Below are positions 3,791 through 52,237 of a stretch of DNA of 64,000 nt, piece after piece. Below the pieces are notes generated by a model, which saw nothing but the letters and a program-made list of their open reading frames with translations, was not told the origin of the DNA and made no database searches. This stretch comes from Alphaproteobacteria bacterium (GTDB lineage: Bacteria; Pseudomonadota; Alphaproteobacteria; UBA828): the NCBI GenBank assembly GCA_965200925.1, contig OZ241738.1:491891-555890 (forward strand), in the 5' to 3' direction. A program made the position numbers and the translations under genes. Within the stretch, counting starts at the first letter, position 1; every line of letters starts with the position of its first letter.

Positions 3791-3897
3791 GGGAACCTCC
3801 AATGACCCGCTGCCCTTCTCAGGCCGATTAATTGGGGGATTACATACATAGGTTGACAAGAGGATATCAGCTTCGCTGCAGTTCGCTACCCGTATAA

Positions 3898-5480: not shown

Positions 5481-6173
5481 ATGCTGGCGGAGCTGGAGGC
5501 GGTCCTGGCAGCGGCCGGTGCGGACGCCGCGCGGGCCGACTACGCGGCGGCGATCATTGAGACCAACTGTTTGTCGAAGCCTACCGCGGCGACGCGCCGG
5601 CTCTCGTGCCAGCGGCTGCGCGAGCTCCACGGGCTGGACCCGGCGCTGCCGCTGTTCCGCGTGCTCCGGCGCCTCTGGGCCTTCGATCCGGCGGGCCGCC
5701 CGCTTCTGGCCTTGCTGTCGGCGCTCGCTCGGGATCCGCTGCTTGCCGCCACCGTTCCCGCGATCGTGTCCCTGCCGCCCGGCGCCGATTTCCAGCGTGC
5801 GCCGATGAAGGCCGCGCTGCGGAGCGCCGTGGGCGAGCGCCTGAATGAGGCGGTCCTCGACAAGACCTGCCGCAACGCGGCCAGCAGCTGGACGCAATCG
5901 GGGCATCTCGAAGGGCGGACGTTCAAGAAGCGGCGGCGGGTCACGGCCTCCACGGCGGCCGTCGCCTTCGCCCTCTGGCTCGCCGGCGCCGCAGGCTGTC
6001 GCGGCGCTGGCGTCTTCGTCTCGGCGTGGCTGCGGCTGGCCGATTGCGGTCCCTCGCGGGCGCGCCGCCTGGCCCTGGAAGCGAAGCGGCTCGGCCTGAT
6101 CGACCTCCGGATGGCCGGCGATGTCGTCGAGCTCGACACGGCCCGGCTCGACCCCGCCGGAAGAGGGGTGTGA
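5481..6173 (+). CDS. brxA: BREX protein BrxA (DUF1819-like)
   Basis: First gene of a co-directional operon followed by BrxB and BrxC. Size ~230 aa; start ATG 5481 inside ORF 5364..6173. Assignment rests mainly on position and size. Confidence 0.55.
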   Translation: MLAELEAVLAAAGADAARADYAAAIIETNCLSKPTAATRRLSCQRLRELHGLDPALPLFRVLRRLWAFDPAGRPLLALLSALARDPLLAATVPAIVSLPPGADFQRAPMKAALRSAVGERLNEAVLDKTCRNAASSWTQSGHLEGRTFKKRRRVTASTAAVAFALWLAGAAGCRGAGVFVSAWLRLADCGPSRARRLALEAKRLGLIDLRMAGDVVELDTARLDPAGRGV

Positions 6174-6739
6174 CCGTGTCGCGCATCGAGGACCTCGCGG
6201 AAGCCTACGGCCGGCATATTGCGACGCCCTGGCAGCGGACGGTCGCCGGCGCCCAGCGTGTCGTGATGGTCGTCTACGACAAGGAGCAGGAGCGGATGCT
6301 GCGCGCCCGCAGGCTCGCCTTCGAGACCGCGACAAAGCGGGCCGGATACGCTTGGCTGGAGGTCGATCTGGCGCCGGCTTTCGCCGAATGGATGGCCGGC
6401 GACGAATACCGGGAGGCGTATTTCGCGACGCCCGAGGATCTGCGGCTGAAGCTCGACGCCGCGTTCCCGGACCATGTGGCCGGCCGCATCCGCGAGCGGC
6501 TGACTTCGGCGGACGCCACGGAGGCTTCCGTCGTCGCGGTCTTCGGCGCGGGCGCGCTCTTCGGCCTCGCGCGGGTCTCGCGAATCCTCGGCATGGTCGA
6601 GAGCGATATCCGCGGCCACCTCGTCCTTTTCTTCCCGGGTCAGTACGAACGGAACAACTACCGCTTGCTGGACGCGCGCGACGGCTGGAACTATCTCGCC
6701 GTGCCGATCACGCTGCGTGGCGCGGAGGAGCACGGATGA
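6170..6739 (+). CDS. brxB: BREX protein BrxB (DUF1788-like)
   Basis: ~190 aa. GTG 6170 overlaps the brxA stop (GTGA). Immediately precedes BrxC, whose ATG overlaps its stop (ATGA). Confidence 0.6.
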   Translation: MTVSRIEDLAEAYGRHIATPWQRTVAGAQRVVMVVYDKEQERMLRARRLAFETATKRAGYAWLEVDLAPAFAEWMAGDEYREAYFATPEDLRLKLDAAFPDHVAGRIRERLTSADATEASVVAVFGAGALFGLARVSRILGMVESDIRGHLVLFFPGQYERNNYRLLDARDGWNYLAVPITLRGAEEHG

Positions 6740-9700
6740 AGATCAAGGACGTCCTCCAGCGCGATCCTGCGGCGCACCCCCTCGTCAACAAGGGCCAGGC
6801 CCGGATCGCCGACCGCGAGGACGCGCAGGTGATGCGGGAGCTGCACGGCGAGCTCGCGACCTTCGTCTGCGAGGGCCAATATGCGGACGGCATCCAGAGG
6901 ATCGTCCGTTCGTTCCTCGACGATCTGGGCCGGACCAGCCAGCGCGGCGCCTGGGTCAGCGGCTTCTTCGGCAGCGGCAAGTCGCACCTCCTGAAGATGC
7001 TCTGCCACCTGTGGCGCAACACCGAATTCCCCGACGGGGCGACGGCGCGCAGCCTGGTTCCCGCGATCCCCGAAGATCTGGCCGCGCTGCTGCGCGAGCT
7101 CGACGTCGCCGCCCGGCGCGCCGGCGGCCTCATGGCCGCGGCCGGTTCGCTGCCCAGCGGCAGCACCGACCACGTGCGCCTCACCATCCTCGGGCTGCTG
7201 CTGCGCGCCGCCGGCCTGCCGGCGCAGTACCCCCAGGCCCGGTTCTGCCTGTGGCTGCACGCCGAGGGGCGCTTCGACGCCGTGAAATCCGCGGTCGAAG
7301 CGGAGGGCCGGCGCTTCGAGCGGGAGCTCAATGACCTCTATGTGAGCGGCGCGATCGCCCGCGCCGTCCTCGCCTGTGCCCCGTCCTTCGCGGCCGGCGA
7401 AGCCGAGGCCAGGCAAGCGATCAGGGCGCAATTCCCGCCCCAGGCCGCCGACATCGCGACGGCGGAGTTCCTGCGCACGGCCAAGGACGCCCTGGCGCAT
7501 GCTTCCGATAGTGAGGGCCGGGTGCCGTGCACACTCGTCGTGCTCGACGAAGTGCAGCAATATATCGGCGATTCGACCGAGCGTTCCATGCTCGTCACCG
7601 AAGTCGCGGAAGCCGTCGAAAAGCAGCTCGATAGCCACGTGATGATCGTCGGCGCGGGCCAGAGCGCGTTGACCGACGCGCCGCTCCTCCAGAAGCTGAT
7701 GGACCGCTTCACGATCCGCGTCCCGCTCTCCGACGCCGACGTGGAGACGGTCACCCGCAAGGTGCTGCTCCAGAAGAAACCCAGCGCCGTCGCCGCTCTG
7801 CGCGCGCTGCTCGAAAGGCACGGCGGCGAGATCTCGCGGCAACTCCAGGGGACCCGGCTGGGCGAGACCGCTGCGGACCGCGTGGCCCTTGCGGACGACT
7901 ACCCGCTGCTGCCGGTCCGCCGGCGTTTCTGGGACGCCTGCTTCCGCCAGATCGACGCGGCCGGCACCCACAGCCAGTTGCGTTCGCAGCTGCGCATCGT
8001 CCACGACGCCCTGGCCAGACTCTCCGACCGGCCGCTCGGCGCGGTCGTCGCCGGCGACGAACTGTTCGATGCGCTCGCGCCCGAGATGGTCAACACCGGC
8101 GTGCTGCTGCGGGAGATCAACGAACGGATCATCGAGGTCGGCGAGGCCGAAGGCGCGCTCGCGCGCCGCCTCTGCGGGCTGATCTTCCTGATCGGCAGGC
8201 TGGCGCGGGAGGCGGGAGCGGATACCGGCGTCCGGGCGACCGCAGACCACCTCGCCGATCTGGTCATCGACGATCTCGCCGCCGACAACGGCAAGCTCCG
8301 CAGCGCGGTCGAAACGACGCTCGGCAAGCTCGCCGGCAACGGCATCCTGATGCGGGTGGGCGAGGAATACCGCCTTCAGACCCGCCAGGGCGCCGAATGG
8401 GATCGGGAGTTCCGCAATCGGCAGACCCGCCTGAACAACGATTCCGCCGCGATCCAGCTTCGGCGCGACGCGCTTCTCCACGGAGAGATCGACAGGATCG
8501 TCCGCGGTCTGCGCATGGTCCAGGGGGCGGCGAAGGAACCCCGGCGCTTCGCCGTTCACCGGGGGGCGTCCCCGCCGCCCGCCGCCGACGGTTCCACGAT
8601 CCCGGTCTGGGTCCGCGACGGCTGGGCGGCGTCGGAGAAGGCGGCGGTGGAGGCGGCGCGGGCGGCGGGCGCCGCCGACCCGACGATTCACGTCTTCGTG
8701 CCCCGTCGTTCGGCGGACGATCTGCGCCGCCTGATCGTCGAGGCGGCCGCGGCCGAACAGGCGCTCGACGCGCGCGGCAACCCGACCGAGCCCGAAGGCC
8801 AGGAGGCGCGCCGGAGCATGGAGAGCCGTCGCGCCCGCGCCGAGGCCGGGCGCGACGCTCTGGTCCGCGACGTCGCCGCCAACGCCAAGGTCTTCCAGGG
8901 CGGCGGCAACGAGGTCCTTCTCGCGGCGCTGGAAGACCGCCTCCGGGCCGCCGGCGAGGACGCGCTCGCGCGCCTGTTCCCCCGCTTCAGGGAAGCCGAT
9001 GGCGCGGCGTGGCCGTCCGTCATCAAGCGTGCGCGTGACGGCGCCGACCACCCGCTCCAGCCGGTCGGGCACACGGACGCGGTGGAAAAGCACGCGGTCT
9101 GCCGGCAGGCGCTTGCCGAGATCGGCGTCGGCGCGTCCGGGGCCGCGTTGCGCAAGGCGCTGGCCGGCCCGCCCTTCGGTTGGCCGCGCGACGCCGTGGA
9201 CGCGGCGCTGATCGCGCTGCATCGCGCGCGGCATCTGTCCGCGACGCTGAACGGCGCGGCGCTCCCGCCAGGCGGGCTCGACCAGAACCGCATCGCGAAG
9301 GCGGCGTTCCGCGCCGAGCGCGCGGCCCTCTCGGTTCAGGATCGCTTGGTCCTGCGGAAGCTCTTCCAGGCCGCCGATCTTGCCTGCAAGAGTGGCGAGG
9401 AGGAAGCCCGGGCGAATGATTTCCTGGACACGCTTGCCGAACTCGCCCGTTCGGCCGGCGGTGAACCGCCGCTTCCCGTCCCGCCCGGTACGGTCGACGT
9501 CGAGGACGCGCGCCGGCTGGCCGGGAACGAACGGCTGGCGGCCATCCGCGACAAGGCCGACGAATGGGAAGGGAAGATCGCCGAGTGGCGCGCGGCGGCG
9601 AAGTCGATCGCCGCGCGTCTGCCGGCATGGCGCCTGGTCGAGCGGCTGGCGGCGCATGCCGAAGGGATCGAAGAGGCCGGGCCGCAGCGCCGCGAGGTGG

Positions 9701-10191
9701 CGGCGGTGCGCGACGGGCGGCAATTGCTGGCGGGCGCGGATCCGGCCGCCGCCATCCGCAAGGCGCTGGCGGACCTTCTCCGCGCTTCCGTCCGGGCCGG
9801 GTTCGAGGCCCTTGAGGCCGCCTTCGCCGAGGCCATGCGGACTCTCGACGCGAACGAAGCATGGCGAAAAGCCGCGCCCGCCGACCGCGAGGCGATCCTG
9901 AAAGAGGCGGGGCTGGCCGCACCGGCGAAGCCGGAGGTCGCGACCGACGAAGCCCTGGCCGACTGCCTCGACCGGCGCTCCCTTGCGGGCGTCCGCGCCG
10001 AGATCGACGCCGTCCCGGCACGCGCGGCCCGTGCCGTCGAGCGGGCGGCCCGGCTGCTGGAACCGAAGGTCCGCCCGGTCGCCCTGGAGCGGGCCACCTT
10101 GCGCGACGCCGCCGAGGTCGAGGCGTGGGCCGAGCGCCAGAAGAAGGCGCTGCTCGAAGCCGTCGCCGACGGCCCGGTGCTGGTGAATTGA
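6736..10191 (+). CDS. brxC: BREX P-loop ATPase BrxC/PglY (~1150 aa)
   Basis: MKIKDVLQRDP... N-terminus with Walker A GFFGSGKSHLLKMLCHLW. Large size and position between BrxB and PglX. Confidence 0.85.
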   Translation: MKIKDVLQRDPAAHPLVNKGQARIADREDAQVMRELHGELATFVCEGQYADGIQRIVRSFLDDLGRTSQRGAWVSGFFGSGKSHLLKMLCHLWRNTEFPDGATARSLVPAIPEDLAALLRELDVAARRAGGLMAAAGSLPSGSTDHVRLTILGLLLRAAGLPAQYPQARFCLWLHAEGRFDAVKSAVEAEGRRFERELNDLYVSGAIARAVLACAPSFAAGEAEARQAIRAQFPPQAADIATAEFLRTAKDALAHASDSEGRVPCTLVVLDEVQQYIGDSTERSMLVTEVAEAVEKQLDSHVMIVGAGQSALTDAPLLQKLMDRFTIRVPLSDADVETVTRKVLLQKKPSAVAALRALLERHGGEISRQLQGTRLGETAADRVALADDYPLLPVRRRFWDACFRQIDAAGTHSQLRSQLRIVHDALARLSDRPLGAVVAGDELFDALAPEMVNTGVLLREINERIIEVGEAEGALARRLCGLIFLIGRLAREAGADTGVRATADHLADLVIDDLAADNGKLRSAVETTLGKLAGNGILMRVGEEYRLQTRQGAEWDREFRNRQTRLNNDSAAIQLRRDALLHGEIDRIVRGLRMVQGAAKEPRRFAVHRGASPPPAADGSTIPVWVRDGWAASEKAAVEAARAAGAADPTIHVFVPRRSADDLRRLIVEAAAAEQALDARGNPTEPEGQEARRSMESRRARAEAGRDALVRDVAANAKVFQGGGNEVLLAALEDRLRAAGEDALARLFPRFREADGAAWPSVIKRARDGADHPLQPVGHTDAVEKHAVCRQALAEIGVGASGAALRKALAGPPFGWPRDAVDAALIALHRARHLSATLNGAALPPGGLDQNRIAKAAFRAERAALSVQDRLVLRKLFQAADLACKSGEEEARANDFLDTLAELARSAGGEPPLPVPPGTVDVEDARRLAGNERLAAIRDKADEWEGKIAEWRAAAKSIAARLPAWRLVERLAAHAEGIEEAGPQRREVAAVRDGRQLLAGADPAAAIRKALADLLRASVRAGFEALEAAFAEAMRTLDANEAWRKAAPADREAILKEAGLAAPAKPEVATDEALADCLDRRSLAGVRAEIDAVPARAARAVERAARLLEPKVRPVALERATLRDAAEVEAWAERQKKALLEAVADGPVLVN

Positions 10192-10203
10192 GGAGATACC
10201 GCA

Positions 10204-11403
10204 ATGTCCTTCATCCGCCGTATCGGCCTGCGCGGCCTGCTGTCGTTTCCGCCCGACATGGAGCCGTTCGATTTCCAGCCGCTGAACGTGCTGATCGGCC
10301 CCAACGGCTCCGGGAAGACGAACCTGATCGAGGCGCTGGAGCTTCTCCGCGCGACGCCAACGGATTTCGCCGCCGCGATCCGCGATGGCGGCGGCGCGGC
10401 GGAATGGTTGTGGAAAGGCGAGAATCCAGCGAGGGCGGCGACGGTAGACATCGAGACCGGAGACTCGACGCCATCGACCGGCCGGCCGTTGCGCTATCTT
10501 CTCCAATTCACGTCGTCGAATAGCCGGGTCGAGGTGCTCGACGAAGCGATCGAGGAAGTGAAGCCCGACATTGGACATGACGAACCGTATTTCTATTATC
10601 ACTTCCAGCAGGGACGACCGGCCATTAACGTCAAAGAGACAACGGAAGGTGGTTCTGGTGGACATGTGGAAAGGCGCCTCAAGCGAGACGACATTTTGCC
10701 GGATCAGTCTGTCCTGATGCAACGCAAGGAACCGGATCTCTACCCGGAAGTCGCTTGGATCGGGCGCATGTTCGGGCAAATCCAGACGTTCCGCGACTGG
10801 ACCTTCGGGCGTTATGCTCCATTAAGGCAGCCACAACCTGCGGATCTGCCGGAGGATCGACTGCTGCCCGATAATCGCAACTTAGCCTTGCTTCTCAATC
10901 AAGTCGAACACCGTGATCCTCGGCGGTTCAACGAACTCCTTAAGCGATTCTTCCCACGTTTTGAACGGATGTCGACCAGGATCTCCGGCGGCACGGTGCA
11001 ATTCTATCTGCATGAGTCCGGTTTCGAGTCACCGATCCCCCCGACACGGCTGTCGGATGGGACGGTGCGCTTTGTCGCTATCCTCGCGACCCTGCTGGCG
11101 CCGTCGCCGTCGCCGCTCGTATGCATTGAAGAACCGGAGCTCGGGCTGCACCCCGACGCGCTGACGCTGGTTGCCGAGCTTCTGGTAGAGGCATCCGAGC
11201 GTATGCAACTTGTGGTCACCACGCATTCGGATGCACTTGTCTCCGCGTTGACGAACCAACCGGAATCTGTCGTTGTTTGCGAGCGGCCGGGTGCGGGTAC
11301 CGTGCTGGAACGACTCGATCCCGAAAAGTTGGCGCACTGGTTGAACGAGGATTATGGGCTTGGCGACTTGTGGCGTATCGGAAAACTGGGCGCCAATCCA
11401 TGA
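10204..11403 (+). CDS. ABC-type ATPase (AAA_21/AAA_15-like; OLD/AriA/PtuA-like N-terminal ATPase), module 1
   Basis: Walker A LIGPNGSGKTNLIEALELL. Walker B/D-loop LVCIEEPELGLHPDA. H-loop VVTTHS. 399 aa. Confidence 0.75.
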   Translation: MSFIRRIGLRGLLSFPPDMEPFDFQPLNVLIGPNGSGKTNLIEALELLRATPTDFAAAIRDGGGAAEWLWKGENPARAATVDIETGDSTPSTGRPLRYLLQFTSSNSRVEVLDEAIEEVKPDIGHDEPYFYYHFQQGRPAINVKETTEGGSGGHVERRLKRDDILPDQSVLMQRKEPDLYPEVAWIGRMFGQIQTFRDWTFGRYAPLRQPQPADLPEDRLLPDNRNLALLLNQVEHRDPRRFNELLKRFFPRFERMSTRISGGTVQFYLHESGFESPIPPTRLSDGTVRFVAILATLLAPSPSPLVCIEEPELGLHPDALTLVAELLVEASERMQLVVTTHSDALVSALTNQPESVVVCERPGAGTVLERLDPEKLAHWLNEDYGLGDLWRIGKLGANP

Positions 11404-12011
11404 GTTCCGTCGAAATCTATATGGAGGGGGGAGGGGATCATCGAAATGGTAAGGAACGTCTTCGTCTCGGTATGGATGCGTTTCTTAGCGAGATGAAGGG
11501 CATGGCCAGGTCCCGGTCGACCCGCTGGAGACTCGTTCTTTGTGGTGGGCGGAACCAGGCATATCGGGCGTTTGTGGAAGCGTGTCGGAGCGACCGGGAC
11601 AGCATCTTCGTGCTGCTGGTCGATTCGGAAGGTCCCGTAAATTCCTCGCCGCGCGCCCATCTGGCCGCGGACGGGTGGGACCTGGACGGAGTGGACGAAG
11701 ACCGGGTTCATCTGATGGTCCAGACGATGGAAACCTGGATCGTCGCCGACCCCGAGGCCCTTGCCGCCTATTACAGGCAGAGCTTTCGAGCGAACGCTCT
11801 CCCGGCGGCGGACGACCTGGAAACGGTCGCCAAGAACGAGGTCGCCAGTGCCCTGGACCGGGCGACCGAGCAGACGCAGAAAGGCCGCTACCACAAGATC
11901 CACCACGCCGCCGACCTCCTCGCGTGCATCGACCCGGCGAAGGCGCGGGCGCGCTGCCGCCATTGCGAGCGCCTGTTCGCCACCCTCGACGCGGCCGTCG
12001 CGGCGGGGTGA
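11400..12011 (+). CDS. Small TOPRIM-like partner protein (DUF4276-like; alternatively DUF4435/AriB-like), module 1
   Basis: ATG 11400 overlaps the ATPase stop (ATGA). ~203 aa. N-terminal EIYMEGGGD (conserved Glu) and LLVDSEG (acidic motif) are consistent with TOPRIM/OLD-nuclease-like small partners of AAA_21 ATPases. Confidence 0.55.
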   Translation: MSSVEIYMEGGGDHRNGKERLRLGMDAFLSEMKGMARSRSTRWRLVLCGGRNQAYRAFVEACRSDRDSIFVLLVDSEGPVNSSPRAHLAADGWDLDGVDEDRVHLMVQTMETWIVADPEALAAYYRQSFRANALPAADDLETVAKNEVASALDRATEQTQKGRYHKIHHAADLLACIDPAKARARCRHCERLFATLDAAVAAG

Positions 12012-12100
12012 GGCGATGAGCGCGCTTTCGCGGGAATCGCGCCGGGCGCTGGAGAGGGCCGTCCGCAAGGCCCGCGCCGCCGCCGAAGCGGGCGCGGGCA
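11984..12100. repeat. ~117-bp direct duplication, copy A, spanning the DUF4276-1 3' end and the first 28 codons of pglX (near-identical copy B at 14003-14119)
   Basis: gcggccgtcgcggcggggtgaggcgatgagcgcgctttcgcgggaatcgcgccgggcgctggagagggccgtccgcaaggcccgcgccgccgccga is identical in both copies, then 2 mismatches and divergence after gggcaag. Confidence 0.85.
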
Positions 12101-12132
12101 AGATGAAGTTGGGGGGAGGGGAGGAGAGATGA
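12016..12132 (+). pseudogene. pglX 5' stub (MSALSRESRRALERAVRKARAAAEAGAGK + 9 unrelated codons); insertion scar
   Basis: Translation is identical to the first 28 residues of full-length PglX at 14025. Terminates after KLGGGEER; its stop overlaps the ATPase-2 start (ATGA). Confidence 0.7.
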
Positions 12133-13355
12133 ACATGACCGACGAACAGCTTGCTGGCGTTCCGCGGATCGAGCGTTTGAAGGTGCGGAATTTTCGGGTG
12201 TTGAAAGACGTCGATATAAGGGATTTGACGCCTTTGACGGTGCTGCTTGGACCGAACGGGAGCGGCAAAACCACCTTGTTCGACGTGTTCGCGTTCCTCT
12301 CCGAATCCTTCGAGGACGGCCTGAGGCGCGCCTGGGATCGACGCGGGCGGGCCAGAGAGCTCAAGACCCGTGGCGCCAAAGGCCCGGTCATCGTCGAACT
12401 CAAATACCGCGAGCGACCGGGCACACCGCTTATCACCTATCACCTGGAGGTGGACGAGCATGATGGCGCGCCCAGTGTCGTCCGTGAATGGCTATGGTGG
12501 AAACGGCACAGCTATGGACGCCCGTTTCGTTTTCTCGAATACCGAAATGGCGGAGGCACAGCGATCAGCGGCGAACAACCCGATGTCGAGGAGGATAGAA
12601 TCCCAATTCCTCTCAAGTCTCCCGACCTGCTGGCGGTCAACACGCTTGGGCAGCTCCGGGAGCATCCGCGCGTGGCCGCGCTGCGCGACTTCATTATGAA
12701 CTGGCACGTATCCTACCTTTCCGTGGATGACGCGCGCGGGCATCCGGAAGCGGGCCCCGAGAAGTGGTTGACCAGGACCGGCGATAATCTCGCCAACGTG
12801 ATTCAGTATCTGAAGGAGAATCATCCGAAGCGGTTGAAGAGGATATTCAAATTATTGGGGCGGCGGGTGCCGCATGTCGAGAAGGTTCGCGCTGAAACCA
12901 TGCCGGACGGGCGACTGCTTCTGCAAATCAAGGACGCGCCGTTCGATCATCCGGTTCAGGCGCGCTTCGCTTCCCATGGAACGCTCAAGATGCTGGCCTA
13001 TCTGGTGTTGCTGCATGACCGGAATCCGTCGCCGTTCATCGGTATCGAGGAACCGGAGAATTTCCTGCATCCGAGGCTACTTCCCGAATTGGCGGAAGAA
13101 TGCCGCGCGGCCAGCGCGCGCACGCAACTGCTCGTCACGACGCACTCCCCGTTTTTTCTGAACGCGCTTCGCCCCGAGGAAGTCCGCGTTTTGTGGCGCG
13201 ACGAAACCGGCCACGCGCAGGTCGAGCAGACCTCTGGTCTCGAGGGAGTGGCGGAGTTCATGGATAACGGGGCGCTGCTCGGGCAGCTGTGGGCAGAAGG
13301 GCAGTTCGGCGTCGGCGATCCACTGGTCCGTCGCGGCGGAGGACGCCGCCGATGA
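12129..13355 (+). CDS. ABC-type ATPase (AAA_21-like), module 2, diverged paralogue of the 10204 gene
   Basis: RIERLKVRNFRVLKDVDI...LTVLLGPNGSGKTTLFDVFAFL (Walker A). FIGIEEPENFLHP (Walker B). LVTTHSPFF (H-loop). 408 aa. Confidence 0.75.
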   Translation: MNMTDEQLAGVPRIERLKVRNFRVLKDVDIRDLTPLTVLLGPNGSGKTTLFDVFAFLSESFEDGLRRAWDRRGRARELKTRGAKGPVIVELKYRERPGTPLITYHLEVDEHDGAPSVVREWLWWKRHSYGRPFRFLEYRNGGGTAISGEQPDVEEDRIPIPLKSPDLLAVNTLGQLREHPRVAALRDFIMNWHVSYLSVDDARGHPEAGPEKWLTRTGDNLANVIQYLKENHPKRLKRIFKLLGRRVPHVEKVRAETMPDGRLLLQIKDAPFDHPVQARFASHGTLKMLAYLVLLHDRNPSPFIGIEEPENFLHPRLLPELAEECRAASARTQLLVTTHSPFFLNALRPEEVRVLWRDETGHAQVEQTSGLEGVAEFMDNGALLGQLWAEGQFGVGDPLVRRGGGRRR

Positions 13356-44899: not shown

Positions 44900-45748
44900 A
44901 TGGAAGGGAAGGTCTGCGTCGTCACCGGCGCCACCGCCGGGATCGGCCGCGTCACGGCGGAGGTGCTGGCCGGCAAGGGCGCGGCAGTCGTCCTCGTCGG
45001 GCGCAACGAACCCAAGGGCGCGGCCGCCCTCGACGCCATCCGGCGGGCGACCGGGAACGGGCGGCTCCGCTTCGAGAAGGCCGATCTTTCCAGCCAAGCC
45101 GAGATCCGGGCGCTGGCGGGGCGGCTCGGCGCGCGGTTCGACGCCATCGACGTCCTCGTCAACAACGCCGGCGCCCTGTTCACCCGCCGGCAGGAGAGCG
45201 CGGACGGCATCGAGATGACCTTCGCGCTGAACCATCTGGGCTACTTCCTGTTGACCGGGCTTCTCCTGGACCGCCTGCGGGCGAGCGCGGCGGCGCGCAT
45301 CGTCAACGTCGCCTCCGGGGCCCATCGCGGGGCGCGAATCGAGCTGGACGACCCGCAAGGGACGCAGCGTTACGGCGGCTGGCGCGCCTACAAGTGGAGC
45401 AAGCTCGCCAACGTCCTGTTCACCTACCGGCTGGCGGCGCTGCTGGCGGGGACGCCGATCACGGCGAATTGCCTCCATCCGGGCTTCGTCGCCAGCCGGT
45501 TCGGGCACGAGAACGGCGGCCTCTTCGCGGCGGTGCTGAAGGTCGCGCAGCGGCTCTTCGCCATCGACGAGGCGGCAGGCGCGCGCACCGGCATCCATCT
45601 CGCGACCGCCCCGGAGGTGGCGGCGGTGACGGGCCGCTATTTCGACCGCTGCCGCGAAGCCGAAAGCGCGCCCGCCTCCCGCGACGAAGCCGCCGCCCGC
45701 CGCCTGTGGGCGCTCAGCGAGTCGCTGACCGGCTGCCGCTATCCGTGA
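44900..45748 (+). CDS. SDR-family oxidoreductase
   Basis: VTGATAGIGRVTAEVLA (TGxxxGxG), NNAG, and YKWSK (YxxxK). Confidence 0.8.
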   Translation: MEGKVCVVTGATAGIGRVTAEVLAGKGAAVVLVGRNEPKGAAALDAIRRATGNGRLRFEKADLSSQAEIRALAGRLGARFDAIDVLVNNAGALFTRRQESADGIEMTFALNHLGYFLLTGLLLDRLRASAAARIVNVASGAHRGARIELDDPQGTQRYGGWRAYKWSKLANVLFTYRLAALLAGTPITANCLHPGFVASRFGHENGGLFAAVLKVAQRLFAIDEAAGARTGIHLATAPEVAAVTGRYFDRCREAESAPASRDEAAARRLWALSESLTGCRYP

Positions 45749-45763
45749 GGCCACCCGCCGGCG

Positions 45764-47756: not shown

Positions 47757-48097
47757 TCTCCCCCCGCCCGCCCGGCCTCTTCGAGCGCCGAAACCAGGGC
47801 GGGATTGAGCGGGTCCGCGGCCCGCCCGGTCAGCCGCTCGACCGCCATCCAGAGGCCCGGCAGGTCGGCGGTCACCTCGGTCGCGCCGCCGCTCCTGTTG
47901 TGCACGAGATACCGGGCGCCGGCCCAGTCGTCGGCCGCGCACCCGTAAGCCGCGAGGACGCGGTTCAGCAGCGCGAGCCTGTGCCGACGTTCGAGATGGC
48001 GGGTGCGGCCGCCGGGCGCCGCGTCGCTGCGGCCGGCGTCGGTCCCGGCCTCCGTCCAGTGCGGGCCTTCCGCCAGGGCGCCGCAGAGCGCGCACAT
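47735..48097 (-). CDS. Small hypothetical protein (CxxC N-terminus) upstream of the cobW-like gene
   Basis: ORF only; MCALCGALAEGPHW...; co-directional with and overlapping the cobW-like start. Confidence 0.3.
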   Translation of the reverse strand: MCALCGALAEGPHWTEAGTDAGRSDAAPGGRTRHLERRHRLALLNRVLAAYGCAADDWAGARYLVHNRSGGATEVTADLPGLWMAVERLTGRAADPLNPALVSALEEAGRAGGEWRPMRG

Positions 48098-48102
48098 CGG
48101 GT

Positions 48103-49014
48103 CTATTTCTTCTTCCTGGAGGGCTTCCGGCCCTTGAACGGCCGGCGCCTGATGAAGTCGTCGGCGATCTCGTCGAAGGTCGCCCAGCGGACCCCGTCAT
48201 GGGCGCCGATATGGGCGATGATTCGCTCGAGCATGAGGAGCGTCTGCGGGCGGCCCGAAATGTCGGGGTGGATGGTGAGCGTATAGACCGCGTAATCCAT
48301 CTCGCGGTAGACCCAGTCGAACTGGTCGCGCCACCAGTCCTCGATGTCCCGGGGGTTGGTCCAGCCGCCGGAATTCGGCACCTTCTTCATGAACATCATC
48401 GGCGGCAGGTCGTCGAGATACCAGCTGCCGGGGATCTGCACGATGGGGAAGGTATCGCCCTTCTTCATCGGCTTCATCCAGGTCTTCGCCGGCTTGGAAT
48501 AGTCGATCAGCGTCCATTCCTCGTTGATGCGCATCCAGTACGGTTCGAAGTCGTGGTGCATCTGGCTGTGGTCGTACTTGATGCCGCGCTCCATCAGCAG
48601 GTGCGGGGTGTGGGCGCTCATCTCCCACCACGGCGCGACATAGCCGGTGGGGGCGCGCCCGCCCTGGAGCTTCGTCACCAGCGCCATGGTCTTGTCGAGG
48701 ATGTCCGCCTCCTGCTCGGGCGTCATGGCGATGGGGTTCTCGTGGGTGTAGCCGTGCAGCCCGATCTCGTGCCCGGCAGTCGCCACGGCCTTCATCTCCT
48801 TCGGGAAGGTCTCGATCGAGTGGCCGGGGATGAACCAGCTGGTGCGGATGCCCAGCCGGTCGAACAGCTTGAGCATCCGGGGGGTTCCGACCTCGGCGGC
48901 GAAGACGCCGCGCGAAATGTCGCTGGGCGAATCGCCGCCGGCATAGGAGCCGATCTGCCCCGCCACCGCGTCCACGTCCACCCCGATCCCGACGAAGATC
49001 TCCTTCCTGGCCAT
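48103..49014 (-). CDS. Polysaccharide deacetylase family protein
   Basis: Start ATG 49014 with SD ggagggcggg. Deacetylase motif [21 protein letters not shown]...[12 protein letters not shown]. Confidence 0.8.
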
Positions 49015-49173
49015 CCCGCCCTCCTTTCGGTTCGCTTCGCCCGAGCCTACGGAAGCCGCCGCGCCCTGGCAAGGCGGGTCTTGATGCGCACTTGCATCGG
49101 GGGCTAAAATCTGATAGGAACACACCATGCACAAAGAGACTGCCCGCCAGGGGCGAAGGGACCGCGCACCGGA

Positions 49174-50421
49174 GTGCTCCCGATGAGCGGCGGCCCGAAC
49201 TGGTCCAATCAGACGATCTGGACTGCGGACAACCTCGGCATCATGCGGGGGATGAACGCCGCGTCGGTTGACCTTATCTACCTCGACCCGCCGTTCAACT
49301 CGAAGGCCAATTACGCCGCGCCCATCGGAAGTAAGGCGGCCGGTGCCGCCTTCAAGGATACGTGGGGACTCGACGATGTGAATCTCGCGTGGCATGGCGA
49401 GATCATGCACGAGCATCCGGGGCTCTACGCCTTGCTCCAGGCGACGCGACAGATACACGGTGACTCCATGATGAGCTACCTCATCTACATGGCGATTCGC
49501 GTCATGGAGATGAGGCGGCTGCTCAAGCCGACCGGGAGCATCTACCTCCACTGCGACACCTTTGCCAGCCACTACCTGAAACTGCTGATGGACAGCTTGT
49601 TCGGAAAGCAATGCTTCCGAAACGAAATCGTGTGGCGGATCGGTTGGGTGAGCGGATTCAAGACGCAAAAACGGGGATGGATCAGAAACCACGATACCAT
49701 CCTGTATTACGTGGCCTCCCCGGGCGCCGCTAAACGGTTCAACAAGGAATACATCCCATATGCGTCCGATTATGTGCGGCGCGACGGAAAGAAGCCGACC
49801 GGCAAAGGCATTCCGTTAGAGGACACATGGAATTGCTCCGATGCCGACCGGCTGGACTCCCTGATGATCAAGAGCTTCGCTCAGAAGACTGGCTATCCGA
49901 CCGAAAAGCCGCTCGACTTGGTTCGGCGCATTATCCGGGCCAGCAGCAATGAGGGCGATATGGTGCTTGACCCCTTCTGCGGATGTGCCACGGCGTGTAT
50001 CGCGGCGGAGATCGAACAGCGCCGATGGGCAGGGATCGACATCTCACCGAAGGCGGCAGATCTCGTAAAAGACCGGATGGATAAGGAACTTGGCTTGTTC
50101 TACAAGGGCGCGCACCGTACCGACATCCCGAAGCGCACCGATCTTGGAAAGGTCATCCGCTACAACGATGCGAAGAACAAACGATACCTATACGGCGAGC
50201 AAGGCGGTTACTGTAACGGATGCGAACACCATTTCGAGATGCGTAACCTTGCGGTAGACCACATCATCCCGCGATCGAAGGGCGGAACGGACCATATCAG
50301 TAACCTGCAACTCCTGTGCGGGGCCTGCAACTCTCTCAAAGGCGACCGGCCCCACGAATACCTGCTTGCATGCCTGACTGACAAGGGATGGATAAGGCGG
50401 AAGAAGGCCGCTCGAAACTGA
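49174..50421 (+). CDS. Beta-class DNA (N6-adenine/N4-cytosine) methyltransferase fused to a C-terminal HNH endonuclease domain; lower-GC, no adjacent R gene
   Basis: Motif [15 protein letters not shown] precedes motif [18 protein letters not shown] (beta-class order). HNH: [45 protein letters not shown]. Confidence 0.75.
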
Positions 50422-50674
50422 ACGAGGTGCTTGACATGTGGGGGGATCTGGTATGTGGGTCTCCGAAACCCGCCTGCGCGCGAGGCATGAAACAAAAGAC
50501 AGGCGACAAGCCACCTGCCGTTGCTCTCGGCGCGTCATCCGCCATCTCTGGACGATCCTGCCGGTGGTTGAGGACGAGTGGGGTTTCCGAGGCGTTCGTG
50601 CATTTCGTACCCGACATCGAGTACGATCCGGAGTGGGCGATCCCAGTATGGCACGATGTCGCGCGGGATGAGAA

Positions 50675-50730
50675 CGCGCTTGCGCCATGCGCCCCGCCGG
50701 CCCTAGGCCTTGGCGCATGGCGCAAGCGCG
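50675..50730. terminator. 19-bp perfect inverted repeat (cgcgcttgcgccatgcgcc / ggcgcatggcgcaagcgcg) between convergent MTase-HNH and tldD; putative bidirectional terminator
   Basis: Read directly; 18-nt loop containing a cctagg palindrome; no T-tract. Confidence 0.4.
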
Positions 50731-50803
50731 TTCGACACCTTGGCTTACGCGCGCAAGCTCAAGGCCGCTGGAGTCGACGAAGCCCAGGCCGACGCGCCGC
50801 CGG

Positions 50804-52237
50804 TCAGGCTTCGGTACCGCCGACGGTGAGAGGGTCCACCAGGAGGGTGGGCAGGCCGACGCCGACGGGGACGCCCTGGCCGTCCTTGCCGCAGGTGCCG
50901 ACGCCCGGGTCGAGGGCGAAGTCGTCGCCGACGGCCGCCACCCTGGTGAGTACGTCCGGGCCGTTGCCGATCAGGCTCGCGCCCTTGAGCGGCGCGGTCG
51001 CCTTGCCGTCCTCGATCAGATACGCCTCGGAGGCCGAGAACACGAACTTGCCCGAGGTGATGTCCACCTGCCCGCCGCCGAAACTCCGCGCGTACACGCC
51101 CCGCTTCACCCGGCGCAGGATGTCCTCCGGCGCGGCGTCGCCGGCCGGCATGAAGGTGTTGGTCATGCGCGGCAGGGGCGCATGGGCAAAGCTCTCGCGC
51201 CGCCCGTTGCCGGTCGGCTCCATGCCCATCAGGCGGGCGTTCAGGCGGTCCTGAAGATAGCCGCGGAGGATGCCGTCCTCGATCAGCACCGTGCGCCCCG
51301 TGGGCGTGCCCTCGTCGTCCACGGTGAGCGAGCCGCGGCGGCGGTCGAGGGTCCCGTCGTCCACCACGGTGACGCCCGGCGCCGCGACTCGCGCGCCGAG
51401 AAGCCCGGAGAAGGCGCTGGTCTTCTTGCGGTTGAAATCGCCCTCCAGGCCGTGGCCCACCGCCTCGTGCAGCAGGATACCCGGCCAGCCGGGGCCCAGC
51501 ACCACCGGCATCTCGCCGGCCGGTGCCGCCACCGATTCGAGATTGACCAGCGCCTGGCGGAGCGCTTCGTCCACCTGCGCCCGCCACCGCTCGGGCGCCA
51601 GGAAATCCGCATAGGCGACGCGCCCGCCCGTCCCGTGGGAGCCCGTCTCCTGACGGGCGCCGTCGCCCACCATGACCGAGACGTCGAGGCGCACGAGGGG
51701 GCGCAGGTCGCAGGCAGAGGCGCCGTCGGCGCGGACGATCTGCACCGCCTGCCAGCTGCCGGAGAGGGAGGCCATCACCTGGCGCACCCGCGGCTCCTTC
51801 GCCCGCGCGTAGGCGTCGATCTCCGCCAGCGCCGCGACCTTGTCTTCGAAGGGCGCGGAATCGAGCGGGTTGTCGCCGGCGTAGAGCGCGCGGTCGGTCC
51901 GCGACGGCCCGTCCGCGTGAAGCCCGCCATGGCCCCGCCGGACGGCACGGACGGTCTCGCAGGCCCGCTTCAGCGCCGCCTCGTCGAGCGCGCCGGCGTG
52001 GGCGTAGGCGCTGGTCTCACCGGCCACGGCGCGCAGGCCGAAGCCCTGGGCGGTGTCGAAGGCGGCGTTCTTGAGGCGGCCGTCGTCGAACGCGAGGCGC
52101 TCGCTCTGGCGGTATTCGAGGAAGAGCTCGCCGTCGTCCGCGCCCTCCAGGGCCTCGCCCACCAGCCGCTCGGTGCGCGCCCGGTCGAGGCCGGTGCGCC
52201 CGAAGAAGAGATCGTCCGTGATCGATTCGCGGTTCAT
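50804..52237 (-). CDS. tldD: Metalloprotease TldD
   Basis: MNRESITDDLFFGRTGLDRARTERLVGEALEGADDGELFLEYRQSE... conserved throughout; 477 aa. Confidence 0.9.
   Translation of the reverse strand: MNRESITDDLFFGRTGLDRARTERLVGEALEGADDGELFLEYRQSERLAFDDGRLKNAAFDTAQGFGLRAVAGETSAYAHAGALDEAALKRACETVRAVRRGHGGLHADGPSRTDRALYAGDNPLDSAPFEDKVAALAEIDAYARAKEPRVRQVMASLSGSWQAVQIVRADGASACDLRPLVRLDVSVMVGDGARQETGSHGTGGRVAYADFLAPERWRAQVDEALRQALVNLESVAAPAGEMPVVLGPGWPGILLHEAVGHGLEGDFNRKKTSAFSGLLGARVAAPGVTVVDDGTLDRRRGSLTVDDEGTPTGRTVLIEDGILRGYLQDRLNARLMGMEPTGNGRRESFAHAPLPRMTNTFMPAGDAAPEDILRRVKRGVYARSFGGGQVDITSGKFVFSASEAYLIEDGKATAPLKGASLIGNGPDVLTRVAAVGDDFALDPGVGTCGKDGQGVPVGVGLPTLLVDPLTVGGTEA

Follow-up and report, generated by a model that had tools for sequence, protein, structure and literature searches.

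Single-chain restriction enzymes of Type IIG/IIC (MmeI family, BpuSI) consist of an N-terminal PD-(D/E)XK nuclease and a gamma-class methyltransferase (MTase) in about 900-1000 amino acids (aa). Allelic diversity of the target-recognition domain has been described for Type IIG genes (PMC2853133). Among mobile elements, the transporter insertion sequences (tIS) MTnSag1/tISSag10 and tISCpe8 of the IS1595 family, found in Firmicutes, have terminal inverted repeats (IRs) of about 25 bp, 8-bp repeats and lincomycin-resistance cargo (PMC5704250). The gene analysed here shares traits with both. It lies in a 64,000-nucleotide stretch of contig OZ241738.1 from an alphaproteobacterium of the UBA828 lineage (assembly GCA_965200925.1), referred to in full length as the window, and encodes a beta-class DNA MTase fused to an HNH nuclease domain (Table 1).

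The reading favoured here, to which about even chances are given, is that of a single-chain restriction-modification (R-M)-like unit that is carried as transposon cargo and has become immobilised in the window. The literature searched, on MTase-HNH fusions, IS1595 passengers and R-M in sponge symbionts, gave general background only, and no description of the MTase-HNH family was found in it.

A conserved frame with an exchanged central region

Both domains of the window protein scored above their Pfam gathering cut-offs, PF01555 (N6_N4_Mtase) with E 8e-37 and 127.8 bits against a cut-off of 26.7, and PF01844 (HNH) with E 5e-13 and 49.5 bits against 21.4. In the MTase, motif IV (DPPF) is followed by a variable region and then by motif I (DPFCGCATA), the circular permutation of the beta class, as had been read in a first-pass annotation made from the sequence alone. 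Comparison with PDB sequences matched the MTase domain to M.BceJIV, M.MboIIA, CcrM and M.RsrI, with motif I aligned to DPFMGSGTT of M.BceJIV, and the best Foldseek matches were the same four enzymes together with Type III Mod subunits. The predicted MTase is probably N6-adenine-specific, because its motif is DPPF and not SPPF/Y, and the closest structures are those of N6-adenine enzymes.

The HNH domain aligned to the Cas9 II-C HNH (8d2k, E 2e-7), to other HNH proteins, to a group II intron maturase and to IscB. Its zinc site consists of two CxxC pairs (C347/C350 and C382/C385), and alignment to Cas9-type HNH domains placed the catalytic residues at D362-H363 (50257-50262), N377 and N386, so that the residues for both catalysis and zinc binding are present. 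A canonical HNH motif with both CxxC pairs had been recognised in the first-pass annotation; the catalytic histidine is H363 and not part of the 'HH' at 352-353 proposed there, and the last position of the motif is Asn, not His. Conservation was assessed with 36 diverse family sequences. The MTase motif residues, all eight of the HNH residues named above and eight positions of the linker between the domains (R315, P319, R321, D323, L339, Y340, Q343 and G345) were invariant in this set.

Mean pairwise identity among these 36 members was 78% in the N-terminal part, 73% in the motif I region, 66% in the linker (aa 311-340) and 75% in the HNH domain; in the central region it was 23%, with lengths between 85 and 177 aa and 18 types among the 36 sequences. 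Some pairs had frames more than 85% identical and middle regions less than 25% identical, as in P0007 and P0035 (92% and 91% in the frame, 17% in the middle), and the same central region was also found in divergent frames. The frame is conserved across phyla, and the recognition region is swapped as a cassette. A conserved frame with a swapped centre, together with paralogues and an invariant HNH, forms the specificity-diversification signature of R-M enzymes, and would not be expected from a nuclease that homes to a fixed site, from a cofactor of transposition or from an epigenetic regulator. Among the roles suggested in the first-pass annotation, that of a minimal single-chain R-M enzyme fits best, since the frame is conserved around a recognition region that varies strongly and can be exchanged.

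Purifying selection acts on the window copy and has kept it intact. The ratio of non-synonymous to synonymous substitutions (dN/dS) of the gene was 0.107 against locus L010 and 0.057 against L011, and that of the C-terminal part with the HNH was 0.12 against L010; the flanking core genes gave 0.18 (TldD) and 0.13 (deacetylase). The synonymous divergence (dS) from the L010 copy (6001-7248) was 0.33, with less than half of this value (0.12-0.14) in the flanking core genes; the excess could result from GC amelioration of a foreign gene or from deeper coalescence via allele exchange.

The family is large. A homologue search gave at least 8000 candidates, all 120 of the matches listed (57-99% identity) carried both PF01555 and HNH, and at least 591 relatives were counted when each species was represented by one genome, so compact MTase-HNH fusions are not unusual, contrary to the first-pass annotation. 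In a representative library, the C-terminal module matched 30 clusters with E <1e-30 and 874 with E <1e-10, including many fragments; it was always C-terminal and no alternative architecture for it was evident there. More than one differing paralogue per genome or locus was present in several cases. Two full-length paralogues lay less than 5 kb apart in L086 (10001-12872, in tandem), L041 (5092-11203) and L080 (5845-11209), and the same-genome copies L016/L027 and L066/L074 were just 50-55% identical.

Locus statistics were taken from the 80 best loci, ranked by similarity to the window protein. Almost all of them came from metagenome-assembled genomes (MAGs), of Poribacteria, Poriferihabitaceae, Porisulfidus, Dehalococcoidia/Chloroflexota and Caldilineaceae, and further of Rhodothermales, Acidobacteriota, Nitrospirales and alpha- and gammaproteobacteria. 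Several of these groups are typical sponge symbionts. The sample code PANK22 appears on sister contigs of the window, and ROBB19 and MORG22 on other family members. PANK22 and MORG22 may stand for Pankey 2022 and Morganti 2022, two sponge metagenome studies cited by a work that pooled sponge metagenomes from 16 studies (PMC13083261); the codes themselves are absent from its text. Because the matches were ranked by similarity to the window query, sampling may account for part of the sponge enrichment.

Carriage by IS1595-family elements

When all open reading frames (ORFs) within 5 kb of the gene were clustered across the 80 loci, only one protein recurred as a neighbour; it has about 312 aa and is encoded immediately beside the gene in 17 of the loci. 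It was identified as an IS1595-family transposase by Pfam (Zn_ribbon_IS1595 and DDE_Tnp_IS1595, E 7e-38) and NCBIfam (transpos_IS1595, E 6e-53); such a transposase was also present in locus L101 and in the P0031 element described below. Terminal IRs of 24-38 bp that start with GGG(A/G)ATTA (GGGAATTATAT...) enclosed the MTase-HNH gene in 15 loci, and in none of these 15 delimited elements did an IR pair surround the transposase alone. Target-site duplications (TSDs) of 8 bp were perfect in ten elements, had one mismatch in three and were lacking in two; they were AT-rich and without consensus, and the insertion sites differed. Two units in which IRs flank the gene without a transposase, L034 (1539 bp) and L073 (1877 bp), had perfect TSDs and are therefore non-autonomous derivatives.

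At least six contigs, from two assemblies, encoded an identical 488-aa protein, P0031. Its gene invariably lay 10 nt downstream of one for an IS1595 transposase, and behind it came a 54-aa ORF and a DUF6998 gene (152 aa). The copies of this element were 99.65-99.92% identical over 3735 bp (e.g. L094 2959-6693; L092-L099), with perfect 27-bp IRs and with perfect 8-bp TSDs at two different sites. Therefore, the 3735-bp element has been active recently. Non-matching flanks were seen for its copies in L092 and L097, which suggests recombination between copies.

The MTase-HNH family is cargo of IS1595-family transporter insertion sequences. The elements that combine IS1595 with the MTase-HNH gene form a clearly delimited transposon family that is partly still active, and no description of it was found in the literature searched.

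Several variants were seen besides. Larger elements of 3.2-4.0 kb, with an IR subtype ending in ...TTGACA, contained extra ORFs, which were small and membrane-protein-like in L026 (9245-12962), L042 (8675-11881) and L076 (9317-12772) and of 429 aa in L064 (8741-12714). In L018 (9932-12657), an otherwise intact element with a perfect TSD, the MTase-HNH frame was split into 329 aa and 95 aa, owing either to a frameshift that left a pseudogene or to an error in the assembly. An IS1-like transposase was present in L012, L019 and L025, with a plausible enclosing IR pair in L025 only. There, the gene lies inside a 4.8-kb unit (7437-12226) with 22-nt IS1-like IRs (GGTAGTGTCTCAGTTTGAAATT) and the IS1-like transposase at one end, and the flanking 8-mers match at seven of eight positions; the gene may have been captured by a second type of transposon.

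History and surroundings of the window copy

The contigs that encode a TldD protein identical to that of the window included seven without the gene, and their flanks were 99.3-99.7% identical in nucleotides. In these empty alleles, TldD lies 258 bp from the deacetylase gene. The MTase-HNH gene was found at the same site and with the same left junction in L009, a contig 97% identical to the window, and in L010, from a lineage 93% identical. The simplest history is that the gene was inserted once, long ago, between tldD and the deacetylase gene, and that alleles were later exchanged by way of the flanks. A foreign origin of the gene is supported by this presence/absence polymorphism and by composition, since its GC content of 0.577 is, as the first-pass annotation had noted, lower than that of the flanks (0.707).

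The sequence upstream of the gene contains a candidate left terminal IR in the expected orientation, which matched the IR of L023 at 16 of 25 positions and was conserved in L009 and L010. At 16/25 or better, 25 of about 128,000 window positions matched, which predicts about 0.02 chance matches for the 110-nt gap before the gene. This is suggestive only of a degenerate left IR of an ancestral IS1595-type element. The junctions with the empty allele lie 34 bp and about 360 bp outside the gene-proximal sequences. A 15/25 match at 50463-50439 was rejected as a right IR, being at chance level. A transposon origin of the window copy is likely, though not proven.

The best IS1595-type IR match of the window was found elsewhere, at 3835-3859 (22/25 against the IR of L042, GGGGATTACATACATAGGTTGACAA). 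The sequence around it is intergenic and of lower GC, and a glycosyltransferase-like ORF lies downstream. As neither an inverted partner nor a nearby transposase was seen, this match may be a solitary remnant of another element.

Table 1. Features of the MTase-HNH gene and its surroundings in the window.
Feature	Position	Strand	Remarks
MTase-HNH fusion gene	49174..50421	+	From ORF list; 415 aa from GTG 49174
Beta-class N6/N4 DNA methyltransferase domain	49267..50070	+	aa 32-299; Pfam PF01555
Motif IV, DPPF	49285-49296	+	aa 38-41
Hypervariable central region	49621..49884	+	aa 150-237; usual position of the beta-class target-recognition domain
Motif I, DPFCGCATA	49969-49995	+	aa 266-274
Conserved linker from MTase to HNH	50086..50211	+	aa 305-346; specific to the MTase-HNH family
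HNH nuclease domain	50212..50349	+	aa 347-392; Pfam PF01844
1720-bp segment	49066..50785		Empty alleles have about 189 bp of unrelated spacer instead; homology breaks at 49060-49065 and 50786
Candidate degenerate left terminal IR, GGGGCTAAAATCTGATAGGAACACA	49100..49124	+	50-74 nt upstream of start codon
Sigma-70-like promoter match, TTGATG-18-TAAAAT	49081..49110	+	Consensus scan, pattern match only; overlaps the IR-like sequence
Downstream segment, about 360 bp	50426..50785		In window and L009; absent from L010 and empty alleles
Hairpin, perfect 22-nt arms	50672-50693 / 50712-50733		18-nt loop; dG -62 kcal/mol, z -6.9; 250 nt past stop codon

The start codon of the gene is probably ATG 49183, which would give 412 aa, as in the homologue P0001. 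The stable inverted repeat that the first-pass annotation had seen after the gene is real, with perfect arms of 22 nt rather than 19 bp and a position well beyond the stop codon, and it lies outside the conserved element; its segment is absent from L010. It was rejected as a canonical terminator because no T-run follows the hairpin on either strand. Apart from one weak tblastx match (E 9e-4), nothing related to the surrounding downstream segment was found in the fetched loci, and the segment contained no transposase remnant; a terminator-like site lies inside it on the minus strand (50519-50498).

The gene is flanked by a polysaccharide deacetylase gene and TldD, followed by cytochrome oxidase genes. 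The absence of a restriction partner, part of the first-pass annotation, was borne out at the window locus and in the 80 related loci; a Res helicase-nuclease gene was likewise not found as a neighbour in either, and no phage or conjugation genes were seen around the window copy and related loci. In PADLOC, the best 25 of 97 matches were all to methyltransferase models, including MTase_III and an orphan MTase model, and no known multi-gene defence system was among them. An Rfam scan of 48000-52000 (E up to 1) gave no RNA family. Elsewhere in the window, another low-GC patch was observed at 10400-11600 (GC 0.57-0.60 against about 0.72 around it), and a second indel polymorphism at about 45743-45750, where L009 (1630-2563) has about 0.9 kb and L010 (1016-2561) about 1.5 kb of extra sequence and the window a few bases.

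Proposed function and comparison with known systems

In the favoured reading, the exchangeable central region of the beta-class MTase would read the target sequence, and the conserved linker would couple the MTase to a Cas9/IscB-type HNH nuclease. The MTase part would mark the host copies of the target, and the HNH, guided by the recognition region of the MTase in a module common to both activities, would nick or cut unmarked copies on incoming DNA or in element-free cells, with a role in defence or addiction. A double-strand cut would probably be made by a dimer, as is usual for beta-class enzymes. The IS1595 transporter insertion sequences would have spread the family over many phyla, mostly in MAGs of sponge-symbiont lineages, and the window copy, having lost the transposase and most of the terminal repeats, would now pass from strain to strain solely when its flanks recombine homologously.

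Several observations weigh against this reading. About three quarters of the sampled loci are without insertion sequence features, so that part of the family may have come to be carried by transposons only secondarily. The window copy itself has neither a transposase remnant (by tblastn) nor a right IR or TSD, and its left IR match is just 16/25. The closest HNH relatives, Cas9 and IscB, cut one strand only, so the window enzyme may only nick. In an AlphaFold2 model built from the 36-sequence alignment, the MTase core was good and the HNH and linker had pLDDT values below 50, so there is no model support for a nuclease placed on the MTase target. Seven near-identical contigs are empty and one or two are filled; as the gene is absent from many near-identical strains, its loss or absence is tolerated, which argues against strong addiction. 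Enzymatic or methylome data for any family member were not found in the literature searched.

The same evidence bears on other explanations. The protein could serve the transposon rather than the host, either by cutting empty or sister sites that are unmethylated, whose repair would copy the element anew (retention or homing, as with TnpB/IscB for IS200/IS605), or by coupling transposition to replication via hemimethylation, with host defence being incidental. The position of the gene inside transposon IRs, an HNH that most resembles mobile-element nucleases (Cas9, IscB, group II intron maturase) and the presence/absence polymorphism at one site in near-identical strains all speak for such a role. 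Nevertheless, most sampled copies are intact without a transposase, and the window copy is under purifying selection without one. Moreover, a hypervariable recognition region combined with conserved IR termini is the opposite of what would be expected from a nuclease directed at its own site, and most IS1595-family elements transpose without a gene of this type. Differing insertion sites and TSDs without consensus leave no fixed homing site; homing into a fixed site was rejected on these grounds, the homologues being at different loci. A transposon-serving nuclease is considered rather unlikely.

It is quite unlikely that the protein is a solitary MTase, either regulatory like CcrM or protecting element or host DNA from restriction, in which the HNH would be a DNA-binding or clamp module or provide minor repair-type nicking. 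The closest solved relatives, CcrM and M.BceJIV, are orphan regulators, CcrM also has a C-terminal DNA-binding extension, an orphan MTase model is among the PADLOC matches, and absence of the gene is tolerated in sister strains. These points are countered by the invariance of the catalytic and zinc residues of the HNH in 36 members which, with the dN/dS of 0.12, indicates that catalysis and not merely the fold is conserved; and cassette-swapped specificity, several differing paralogues per genome and transposon carriage would be unexpected for a regulator. As for an anti-restriction methylase derived from a phage or an integrative and conjugative element, with a homing- or packaging-type HNH, as the first-pass annotation had entertained, phages and plasmids often carry relatives of the MTase part, and one full-length copy lies on a putative viral contig. 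HNH proteins beside terminase genes are known in phages (PMC3592412). However, full-length fusions are nearly absent from the relevant collections: 3 of 305 phage protein records and none of 360 plasmid protein records covered at least 80% of the query, the others being almost only MTase-only relatives, and 3 of 38 IMG/VR matches reached into the HNH part. The one viral-contig case examined proved to be an IS1595 element, with its full-length MTase-HNH copy, inserted there; the homologues are not uniformly located in prophages, and the lack of phage or conjugation genes at the window and related loci points the same way. Such an origin, largely refuted by the context analysis, is very improbable.

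A broader claim is put forward tentatively, with chances somewhat below even. The family could be an uncharacterised class of single-polypeptide R-M enzymes (beta-class MTase plus HNH, about 400-490 aa) that is swapped in its centre and travels as an IS1595 passenger, the smallest self-mobile R-M unit known (about 2.4 kb, or 1.5 kb when non-autonomous), spread across many phyla in sponge microbiomes and shaping gene-flow barriers and phage defence there. If the enzyme works as proposed, it would be a compact new architecture among single-chain R-M enzymes, and those who search for or engineer enzymes could find its modular recognition cassette, with 18 types in 36 sequences, of interest. A simple insertion sequence could then carry a complete system for discriminating self from non-self DNA. 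In sponge microbiomes and other dense communities associated with a host, this would link transposon biology, defence and horizontal transfer. For the source genome the meaning is more modest, that of an old, immobilised and still conserved copy that is polymorphic in the population.

Compared with the IS1595-family tIS, relatives of the window gene likewise have an IS1595 DDE transposase, IRs of about 25 bp, 8-bp TSDs and a passenger inside the IRs; they differ in that the cargo is an MTase-HNH gene and the hosts are sponge-symbiont lineages of many phyla, and the window copy itself lacks transposon features. In contrast to classical Type II R-M systems, there is no separate R gene adjacent, and no recurrent neighbour other than the transposase in 80 loci. 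CcrM and M.BceJIV are the best matches of the MTase core in both sequence and fold and share the motifs DPPY/F and DPFxGxG-like, but at about 20-25% identity, and they are vertically inherited regulators of fixed specificity without a nuclease domain. The beta-class order and the variable middle are also those of Type III Mod subunits (EcoP15I Mod, Mbo45V Mod and phase-variable mod alleles; structural matches 4zcf, 7dsu and 6k0w), whereas the window protein is shorter, carries a fused HNH nuclease and has no Res partner in the 80 loci. Its HNH shares the CxxC...DH...N...CxxC-N pattern of the domains of Cas9, IscB and group II intron maturases, its best HNH sequence matches; these are RNA-guided, whereas the sole plausible guide here is the recognition region of the fused MTase. 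Finally, the window protein differs from Type IIG/IIC enzymes in consisting of a beta-class MTase and a C-terminal HNH, a nuclease predicted from sequence, in only about 415 aa, but resembles them in combining MTase, recognition region and nuclease domain in one polypeptide that needs no partner and changes its specificity by exchange of a region.

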